64,000 bases of DNA. Origin: an uncultured Verrucomicrobiae bacterium (GTDB lineage: Bacteria > Verrucomicrobiota > Verrucomicrobiia > Chthoniobacterales > UBA10450). Positions 17,401 through 20,400 of this stretch are shown in pieces. Every line of letters begins with the position of its first letter. Position 1 is the stretch's first letter. The DNA is taken from contig CAVSDR010000006.1 of the NCBI GenBank assembly GCA_963726745.1, forward strand, positions 928,001 to 992,000. Direction: 5' to 3'. Made by a program: the position numbers.

Positions 17401-20400
17401 AGCGGCCACGAAGTTACTCTGATCAGCGGGCCGGTCGCCCTCTCTCCGCCGGCGGGAGCGGAAGTTATTCGCATCACCACAGCCGACGAACTTTTCGATG
17501 CCGTGCATGCGCACGTCGCTGCCTGCGACTTGCTGGTGATGTGCGCCGCGGTCTGCGATTACAAACCGCTGTCTGTATCCGCGGGCAAGCTTCCAAAACA
17601 GACAGCCACCTTCACGCTCGAGCTCACGCCCACGCGTGACGTTCTCGCCTCGCTTGCGCCTAACGAGCGGTCGTTTTACGTCGTCGGTTTCGCTGCGGAA
17701 ACGCAAAACCTCGAGGGAAACGCGCTCGCCAAGCTCGCGCGCAAACATTGCGACGCGATCATCGCCAACGATGTCAGCGCGGAAGATGTCGGGATGGAAA
17801 GCGATGAGAATGCGGCGACGATTTTCTTCGCGAATGGTGAGCGCGCGGTCTTCGCACGCGCTGAAAAAAAATTACTCGCGCGCGAAATGATGAAAAAAAT
17901 TTTCACGATTGCGCAAAAAAGTTTGACAAAAAAAACGTGATGTTTAGTGACTCGTGTCGTGAACTTATTCACACACTTGTTCACACCCAACCGCACCTGC
18001 GGATCGAAAGGGGGGATATCTCATGCCAGCAAAGAAGAAAGCCGCTGCTAAGAAAGCGCCTGCAAAGAAAAAAGCAGCCGCCAAAAAGCCCGCGAAGAAG
18101 GCCTCCAAGAAGAAATAGTTCTCTGGCCTGATCACAGAAGAACCTCCCAATCGTTCTTCTAAAACGAAAACTCTAACCCGGGGGAAGGATTCCGATTCTT
18201 CCTCCGGTTTTCTTTTGCCCCGAGGCGTCGCGCGGAAAAGTTTTCGCGGCGGCGCCATTCTCCCTGTAGTTCTCTCGCATGCAAAATTTCCAGGAGGCCG
18301 CGGAACGGGCGGCGCGCGCGGCTGGCCAGTCGCTCCGCGAGCAGTTCGATCAGCCGCGGCGGGTGAATGCGTCGGAAAAGCACGACATCAAGCTCGAGAT
18401 CGATGTCCTTACGCAGGAGTTGATCACCAAGGTTCTGCTCACCGAATTTCCTGAGCACGCGCTCTACGGCGAGGAGGGCGTCACCGGCGACCAGACGGCG
18501 GAGTATCAATGGATCGTCGATCCGATCGACGGGACGGTGAATTACTTTTACGGCATTCCGCACTTCTGCATCTCGATCGCGCTCCGCCGCGGCGAGGAGA
18601 TGATCGTGGGCGTGATTTACGATCCCATGCGCGATGAAATGTGGAGCACGCGCGCGGGCGCGCCGACGACTTTGAATGGCAAAACCGTGCGCGTGAGCGC
18701 ACGAGCGACAATGGCGGAGGCGGTCCTCTCCGTCGGTCTTTCGAAAAGCAAAACCACGATCGATGCCGGCCTGCCGCTGCTCGCGGAGATGGCGCATCGC
18801 GTGCGCAAGTGCCGCCTGATGGGCAGCGCCGCGCTCGACATGGCCTACGTCGCTTGCGGACGCTTTGACGCTTATATCGAGCAAGGGATCAGCCTCTGGG
18901 ATGTGGCCGCCGGCATCTTGCTGATTAAAAACGCCGGCGGCACGATCGACATGCGGCCGCGCCCGGACCAGAAGGATAAATACAGCATCGTGGCCGCAAA
19001 CGGCGCGCTCGAGCTCGGCCTTCCACAACCATGAAAACGAAATGCGGCATCGGCTACGACGCGCATCGCCTGGTCGCGGGGCGCAAGCTCATCCTCGGCG
19101 GCGTGGAGATTCCTCACTCGTTAGGCCTCGAGGGCCATTCGGACGCCGACGTGCTCGCGCATGCGATCGCGGATGCGCTTCTTGGCGCGATCGCACAGGG
19201 CGACATCGGTCATCATTTTCCGAACACGGATGAAAGCATCCGTGGGATCAGCAGCCTGGCGATTCTCGGCCGCACGCAGGAGATCCTGGCGCAATACCAG
19301 GCGCGGATCGTGAACGTCGACGCGACCCTCCTGGCGGAGGCGCCGAAGATTGCGCCGCACATTCCGGCGATGCGCGCGGCGATTGCGCAGGCGCTGCGCA
19401 TCGAGACCGGCTGCGTGAGCATTAAGGCGACGACCAACGAAGGCCTCGGCACGATCGGCCGCAGCGAAGGCATGGCGGCGATGGCGGTCGCGAGCGTGGA
19501 GCAGGATTAGTCGATGGCGTTGCGTTTCTTCAACACCTTCACGCGCGCGCTGGAGGAATTTCGCCCGCTCGATCCGGCGGGCGCGCGGTGAAGATGTATA
19601 CCTGCGGCCCGACGGTTTATTCCTTCGCGCACATCGGAAATTTCCGCGCCTACCTCTTCGAGGATCTGCTGCAACGGCAACTCGAGCTGCGCGGTTACGC
19701 GGTCGAGCGGGTGATGAACATCACCGACGTCGACGACAAGACGATCCGCGGCTGCCAGGCGGCCGGCGTCTCGCTGGCTAATTTTACCGAGCAATTCAAG
19801 AACGCCTTCTTCGCCGATCTCGATGCGCTCCGGATCAAGCGCGCGGAGAAATATCCGGCCGCGACCGACTACGTCCCGGCGATGATCGCGATGATCGAGA
19901 CCCTGATTGCGCGCGACCTGGCGTATCAGGCCGAGGACAAATCGGTTTACTACCGGATCAAGAATTTCCCGGCCTACGGACACCTGGCGCACTTCAACCT
20001 CGACGAGCTGCAATCGACCGGCCGGGTGAAGAACGACGAATACGAAAAGGAAAACATCGGCGACTTCGCGCTTTGGAAAGCGTGGGACGAAGCCGACGGC
20101 GACGTCCGCTGGGAGAGTCCATGGGGCCCCGGCCGGCCCGGCTGGCACATCGAGTGCAGCGCGATGGCGACGCAGCTGCTCGGCGAGCAACTCGACCTGC
20201 ATTGCGGCGGCGTGGACAACATTTTCCCGCACCACGAAGCCGAGATCGCGCAGACCGAAGGCTGCACCGGGCGACAATTTGTCCGCTACTGGATGCATTG
20301 CGCGCACCTCTTGGTCGAAGGGACAGAAAATGTCCAAGTCGCTGGGTAATTTCTTCACCCTGCGCGACGTGCTCGAGCGAGGTTACAGCGGGAGGGAAGT

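Follow-up and report, generated by a model that had tools for sequence, protein, structure and literature searches.

A missed gene for a short Lys/Ala/Pro peptide in Chthoniobacterales, with candidate DnaA boxes at its promoter in part of the order

Between coaB and suhB of an uncultured Verrucomicrobiae bacterium of the order Chthoniobacterales, one of the Verrucomicrobia of soil and water, lies a short open reading frame which, judged by how its relatives diverge, is almost certainly protein-coding. As its promoter often carries DnaA-type sites, the product could coat DNA and be supplied in step with chromosome replication. The complete reading, a non-specific nucleoid polycation whose gene DnaA represses in some lineages of the order, has in our judgement about an even chance of being correct. 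The window that we analysed is a stretch of 64,000 nucleotides, and Table 1 lists the features of the locus in window positions; positions given with a contig name refer to the host genome, G000. The first-pass annotation had described a missed gene here with an open reading frame, a Shine-Dalgarno sequence, a 3′ hairpin and a terminator, and all of these are present.

Table 1. Features of the peptide gene and its surroundings, in window positions.
Feature	Position	Strand	Description
coaC	16721-17290	+	upstream neighbour
coaB	17287-17940	+	direct upstream neighbour of the peptide gene
-35 hexamer TTGACA	17923-17928	+	within the final codons of coaB
-10 hexamer TAGTGA, putative	17945-17950	+	usual final T missing; placed by comparison of loci
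GTGAAC element	17959-17964	+	GTGA core kept also in box-free families
DnaA-type box TTATTCACA	17965-17973	+	matches TTWTNCACA at 9 of 9 positions
Second DnaA-type box TTGTTCACA	17977-17985	+	12 bp after the first; matches TTWTNCACA at 8 of 9 positions
Hairpin CCGC-N4-GCGG	17991-18002	+	directly 5′ of the Shine-Dalgarno sequence; conserved
Shine-Dalgarno sequence GAAAGGGGGGA	18006-18016	+	8 base pairs, one of them G-U, to the 3′ end of 16S rRNA
Lys/Ala/Pro peptide gene	18023-18118	+	31 aa, MPAKKKAAAKKAPAKKKAAAKKPAKKASKKK; 15 Lys, no acidic residue, charge +15
3′ UTR hairpin	18136-18160	+	variable sequence; stem in most relatives, judged by eye
Intrinsic terminator	18178-18217	+	13-bp stem (18178-18207) and T tail
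suhB-family inositol monophosphatase	18279-19034	+	downstream neighbour

Coding potential was assessed on DNA alignments of 19 disjoint pairs of loci, made with no regard to the reading frame. Mismatches numbered 32, 33 and 200 at codon positions 1, 2 and 3, so that the third position took up 200 of 265, and 28 of the 37 internal gaps were divisible by three. This bears out the earlier statement that the length changes by whole repeats with the frame kept. Lysine is encoded by 676 AAA and 673 AAG codons, and all four alanine codons are in use. The length range of 22-70 aa given earlier proved too narrow: 90 complete ORFs run from about 18 to 129 aa, with lengths of 19-31 aa common in the family.

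The local gene order is yicC-gmk-coaC-coaB, then the peptide gene, then suhB-ispF. By its anatomy the peptide gene is a self-contained monocistronic unit that is presumably expressed. Conserved elements were compared in 91 leaders, which include two copies from one genome (G040) and one truncated ORF; one locus from outside the order was filtered off. TTGAC, followed by TA 16-19 nt past the hexamer, is found in 79 of them, and a simple sigma-70 scan did not call the TTGACA promoter at 17923. In 65 of the 91 loci AGG[GA]G begins 14 nt 5′ of the ATG (the pairing in Table 1 uses the 16S 3′ tail of the host genome), and a terminator-like hairpin follows the peptide gene in 85. The 5′ arm of the terminator contains an SD-like GGGAG[AG]AG that is kept across families, beyond what a terminator needs. 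The suhB transcript apparently has no leader and would use its own TA-motif at 18267; suhB genes of the genus carry a TA[GC]T motif 5-7 nt 5′ of the ATG, in which the usual final T of the -10 is missing. As minor features of the region, coaBC is here divided into two genes, coaC and coaB (window 16038-17940), and the gmk-coaC interval is without rpoZ, with two rpoZ-family matches elsewhere (C6:557677 and C3:1084073).

The hairpin in front of the Shine-Dalgarno sequence is the sole consensus stem that RNAalifold predicted in the family alignment. Its four core pairs are each retained by 45-47 of the 49 sequences, and five core changes are both-sided. A further 5′ RNA stem is possible, in which the GTGAAC element would pair with either downstream TTCAC. 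It reads GTGAAC-GTTCAC in genus g1 and GTGAAG-CTTCAC in sister genera, a difference that suggests pairing and may go back to a single event; this stem, GTGAAS/STTCAC, is absent from the RNAalifold consensus. Rfam yielded three chance matches, far under the gathering scores.

Because matches to a low-complexity peptide come easily, as had been feared from the start, loci were fetched through suhB and coaC rather than through the peptide, and the gene was still found there. It is present in 19 of 21 suhB-anchored loci of the genus; of the two misses, one has suhB moved and the other lies at a contig edge. With the leader model added, 21 of 25 genomes of the genus carry the gene, and the four misses are 66-82% complete. 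An unpublished genome (G001) is one of the 21 carriers, and no conclusion rests on it. Across the order, 49 of 60 coaC-anchored loci from 15 families have the gene, one more coaC locus that was unreadable through its length having been excluded. Ten genomes are without the gene at coaC; six of these carry it elsewhere and four gave no match. A covariance model comprising the hairpin, the Shine-Dalgarno sequence and the start matched 16 of 28 chosen genomes. Altogether, each of the 16 families of Chthoniobacterales has at least one carrier, in agreement with the conservation claimed for the order. The gene has been relocated in several genomes of families f16, f2 and f3, where its products reach 108-129 aa, and is inverted relative to coaC and suhB in family f7 (L060-L064). 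One genome (G040) has two copies, L164 and L168, which encode 64 and 111 aa and have almost the same leader. No gene match was obtained in G033, G048, G054, G056, G042, G145, G124, G132 and the four incomplete genomes of the genus; the first four of these were also missed by a protein-level search whose positive control worked.

In a draw of 121 genomes across the phylum, 22 matched the leader model at E<=0.1. In seven matched genomes outside the order the leader runs into a K/A ORF of 18-36 aa, which in five of the seven stands directly after gmk or coaB/C. Among 27 coaC loci read beyond the order, a single one has the gene. Misses elsewhere should not be read as absence, since the leader model was trained almost wholly on Chthoniobacterales. 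The common position suggests an old gene that has been broadly kept in this order.

Lysine makes up 41.5% of residues over the 90 complete ORFs, alanine 34%, proline 11% and valine 5.5%; arginine stays below 2%, and 4 of 4,473 residues are acidic. Basic residues (K/R) show an autocorrelation of +0.133 at lag 5 and +0.086 at lag 10, with negative values at lags 2-3. APAKK and KAPAK are the commonest 5-mers, and in nearly all homologues the repeats continue to the stop codon. The description of the product as similar to an H1 tail without a globular domain is thus borne out by composition and by the lack of a Pfam match. The peptide could be a substrate of lysine methylation; two SET-domain genes of the host genome (C2:28432 and C6:275989) are unlinked to it.

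Stand-alone genes for proteins of this type are known as chlamydial Hc2 (HctB; PF07382, NF038052), Bordetella BpH1 and a Burkholderia family (NF038053). Like Hc2, the peptides consist of pentamers with two basic residues plus A, V, T or P and vary in length repeat by repeat, following the pentamer pattern as given in the portion of PMC2848022 drawn on here; the same portion reports BpH1 to be dispensable. The host lineage and Chlamydia belong to the same PVC superphylum, and sequence of such low complexity cannot separate homology from convergence. Hc2, which binds DNA and is expressed late in development, and its Bordetella and Burkholderia counterparts are 149-237 aa long, Hc2 itself 165-237 aa, and have a non-repetitive C-terminal domain; the present products have 18-129 aa and no such domain, and the DnaA-type boxes at the promoter set the gene apart from Hc2-type genes. 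Membership in Hc2 was rejected on score, length and C-terminal domain, although the pentamer pattern agrees. The 31-aa peptide does not match PF07382 or NF038052; among 11 long homologues six match PF07382, with a best score of 34.6 bits against a cut-off of 40, and the best NF038052 score is 29.7 against 135, with NF038053 also under its threshold.

The PAKK and KPAA tails of mycobacterial HupB/MDP1 and Pseudomonas AlgP/PhaF have the same composition and repeat words, and isolated tails bind DNA according to the excerpts consulted; those tails span 100-150 aa and are fused to folded domains, whereas the present peptide consists of such a tail and nothing else. The C-terminal domain of eukaryotic H1 is likewise rich in Lys, Ala and Pro and expected to be disordered, but the peptide has neither a globular domain nor a nucleosome context. 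Membership in linker histone H1 was rejected as well: there is no globular winged helix, and the 11 homologues gave sub-threshold matches to HC2 and extensin only.

Pfam, NCBIfam and Rfam hold no family that matches the 31-aa gene or peptide, and a phage collection gave no match to the peptide. Ten peptides of about 31-94 aa were looked up in a collection of 15 billion proteins, which may itself filter low-complexity proteins, and none was present; a conserved gene with products of up to 94 aa is thus missing from it. The nearest clusters in the ESM Atlas are unnamed hypothetical proteins of 29-38 aa (0.96-0.97, with the recognition value under threshold), and their existence indicates that some datasets do call similar peptides. 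A homology search with a 42-aa homologue from the genus returned 5,862 candidates and none at E<=1, a result that the low complexity of the sequence makes uninformative. Searches at the level of listings in an open-access library turned up neither a description of the peptide gene nor an H1-like gene under the control of DnaA.

The leader had been described as conserved, which the comparison supports; the tandem of DnaA-type boxes at the promoter, which makes up most of this leader, had gone unnoticed. TTATTCACA conforms to the E. coli DnaA box consensus TTWTNCACA as stated in the extract of PMC5043019. The 3.4-Mb host genome has 11 exact TTRTYCACA sites, two of which are in the peptide-gene leader, and TTGTTCACA is found upstream of dnaA as well. 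The dnaA loci of 30 genomes, read as an independent test, gave 36 matches to this strict pattern across 11,861 nucleotides upstream of the gene and 0 across 40,656 coding nucleotides. Of the 30 loci, one of which is without upstream DNA, 23 have a strict box upstream of dnaA. These boxes are 18 TTATTCACA, nine TTGTTCACA, seven TTATCCACA near the start codon and two TTGTCCACA, and they are mostly in tandem, 11 bp apart, just past the promoter. The DnaAs of Epsilonproteobacteria, which differ in helix 5 at residue 435, have been proven to use a TTCAC core (PMC5043019, same extract). All 30 Chthoniobacterales DnaA proteins (L032, L093-L121) have DHGT at this place in helix 5, and the promoter boxes prefer T at position 5; the DnaA box of the order can be given as TT[AG]TTCACA.

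Exact TTRTYCACA boxes are present in 47 of the 91 peptide-gene leaders, with two or more boxes in 36. They occur at fixed offsets from the -35 (+22, +42/43 and +53-55) and in a single orientation, and control 3′ segments of the same length contain no exact box. In f2, f4, f9, f10, f11, f16 and three of the five f14 leaders a third box, which is then the first in order, covers the -10, with the second 20-21 bp later. A box over the -10 cannot be an RNA feature because it is upstream of the inferred start. The positions of the boxes would suit a block of RNA polymerase or a site that follows it. Promoters regulated by DnaA include that of dnaA itself, by autoregulation, as well as mioC, nrdAB and B. 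subtilis sda. The peptide gene resembles them in its tandem 9-mers, which sit on the promoter or immediately 3′ of it: its box lies at the promoter, and the genome has a dnaA gene with the same box at its own promoter. These 9-mers are identical to those at the dnaA promoters of the order, but the boxes of the peptide gene are oppositely oriented, occur only in part of the order and precede a gene for an H1-like micro-protein. We consider it probable that DnaA binds the leader boxes.

Exact boxes are absent from families f5, f6, f7, f8, f12, f13 and f15 and from the other genera of f1. On a quick and weak coaC tree with 67 of the 91 loci, the box trait changes seven times, at least three of them forced. 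Since 44 of the 91 leaders have no exact box and the trait changes so often, the peptide gene does not depend on control by DnaA. In genus g10 neither dnaA nor the peptide gene gave a match in the two genomes of 0.9 Mb, and the two larger genomes have both, with boxes; the co-loss was probably one event in reduced genomes and is only suggestive. By two Pfam domains dnaA had no match in G033, G048 and G054 (99%, 99% and 94% complete), and G056 and G042 have dnaA and no match for the peptide gene.

Elsewhere in the host genome boxes precede ksgA-NUDIX (three boxes, C6:135897-135950), rpsU, a divergent aminotransferase/lipoprotein pair and dnaA (the sites outside ksgA-NUDIX and the peptide locus being C4:268824, C3:1134411 and C5:182872-182891), and the genes so preceded form a candidate DnaA regulon. 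Other interpretations of the boxes were discarded. The Rex operator has the consensus TGTGAAC-N3-TTCACA; no PF06971 match was found in the host genome (95% complete), the palindrome is not kept across families, and the other GTGAA-N4-TTCAC sites of the genome lie in coding sequence, as judged by eye. A CRP-type palindrome fails on the same lack of conservation, and an oriC was rejected with just two boxes and no turn of the cumulative skew of C6 at 946 kb.

In our proposal the product of this stand-alone gene is a polycation without fixed structure, built from Lys-Lys pentamers of the Hc2 or H1-tail type. The peptide would be abundant and would bind phosphate backbones of nucleic acid independently of sequence, chiefly those of chromosomal DNA; its role in the nucleoid would be an accessory one, in which it bridges duplexes and neutralises part of their charge. 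DnaA would repress the gene, in the host genus and in several further families, from tandem boxes that overlie the -10 or closely follow the start, and supply would rise as free DnaA drops after initiation or as new DNA titrates DnaA. Neutralising 10% of the charge of the chromosome would take about 45,000 copies, and 90% about 409,000, a demand that counts against a strong claim. The isolated 109-aa PAKK tail of MDP1 binds DNA and compacts plasmids alone, and constructs with tails of at most 38 aa almost lose compaction in vitro, although 38 aa are enough in cells (both from the accessible part of PMC10810275); KPAA peptides also bind DNA (PMC9239181, in part). The label of minimal DNA-condensing protein, which had been attached to the 31-aa product, is therefore plausible rather than proven, and the short MDP1 tails weigh against it.

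For the condensation of nucleoids in Verrucomicrobia the peptide is a specific, synthesisable candidate. Chthoniobacter flavus has a condensed nucleoid surrounding an electron-dense granule, and condensed nucleoids are also described for Verrucomicrobium, Prosthecobacter and Ca. Xiphinematobacter in the section of PMC2647929 that we used. As a counterpoint, condensed nucleoids occur in lineages where the gene was found rarely or never. A far-reaching extension would be that many bacteria have missed H1-tail micro-proteins that stand free of other domains, with DnaA as the sensor of DNA content that sets their supply to match the chromosome, and that in Chthoniobacterales such a protein is chiefly responsible for nucleoid condensation, with repeat number tuning compaction; we consider this doubtful. 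If the proposed control is true, the DnaA boxes tie replication initiation directly to the supply of a nucleoid polycation, and the natural length series of 19-129 aa would serve to test the minimum working length of an H1-like tail. The sole HU/IHF-family gene found in the host genome is at 10296-10697 of the window (minus strand); its product of 133 aa has an additional stretch at the C-terminus.

Boxes also precede rpsU and ksgA and hence are no specific pointer to DNA as the target. The peptide might instead be mainly an RNA- or ribosome-associated polycation, such as an aid to rRNA folding, a translation damper or an extra ribosomal peptide, that is co-regulated with ribosome genes; the similar K/A/P tails on uL22 and uL24 of the host would fit, as would the RNA affinity and translation repression greater than those of Hc1 that a passage of PMC2848022 reports for what we take as Hc2. 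Against this speak the seven-fold, repeat-wise length variation, the low arginine content and the location outside ribosomal operons. Ribosomal proteins with fixed sites are unlike the peptide in both length behaviour and arginine content, and we hold a mainly RNA-directed role to be rather unlikely. A buffer or tether for polyphosphate or another polyanion at the nucleoid, on the model of the KPAA tail of Pseudomonas AlgP, seems unlikely. The KPAA domain is required for the spacing of polyphosphate granules in the available account of AlgP (PMC9239181), the host has ppk1, and the granule within the C. flavus nucleoid (PMC2647929, same section) would suit such a function; but an AlgP-like N-terminal domain is missing, no ppk is adjacent in the loci read, and DnaA boxes are better suited to a DNA-linked role.

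That the DNA itself is the functional element, as an origin of replication or a site that titrates DnaA, or that a non-coding RNA is, with the ORF incidental, is very unlikely in view of the third-position bias, the frame-keeping gaps and the persistence of the gene in the box-free loci. The tandem-box pattern is rare, with 15 matches in 14 genomes of the genus, 11 of them here, though the pattern was derived from this leader, and the locus does have several RNA hairpins; yet there are 2-3 boxes only, no GC-skew turn and no Rfam family near its gathering score. The arrangement of a short ORF, hairpins and a terminator upstream of suhB also recalls a leader peptide that attenuates suhB. We reject this scarcely credible alternative because the gene is inverted or relocated relative to suhB in f7 and in several f16, f2 and f3 genomes, and further because suhB has its own leaderless-type motif and no antiterminator appeared in the fold. 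A nucleoid polycation that binds chiefly DNA remains our preferred reading.

Basic tails and small basic ORFs are also found elsewhere in the host genome. Two other small basic ORFs, whose ends are rich in K/A or K/S and whose lengths are about 60 and 105 aa, are located at C2:376029 (L205), which has no Pfam match, and at C3:264569. K/A/P tails are carried by uL24 and uL22 (C4:230700-233700; L203, L204) and by the product of C7:136416, which we take to be a Ku-like protein. A DksA/TraR zinc-finger protein at C4:200982 (L202) has a long H1-like N-terminal tail, an architecture that resembles Streptomyces DdbA as far as it is described in the part of PMC3643593 consulted.
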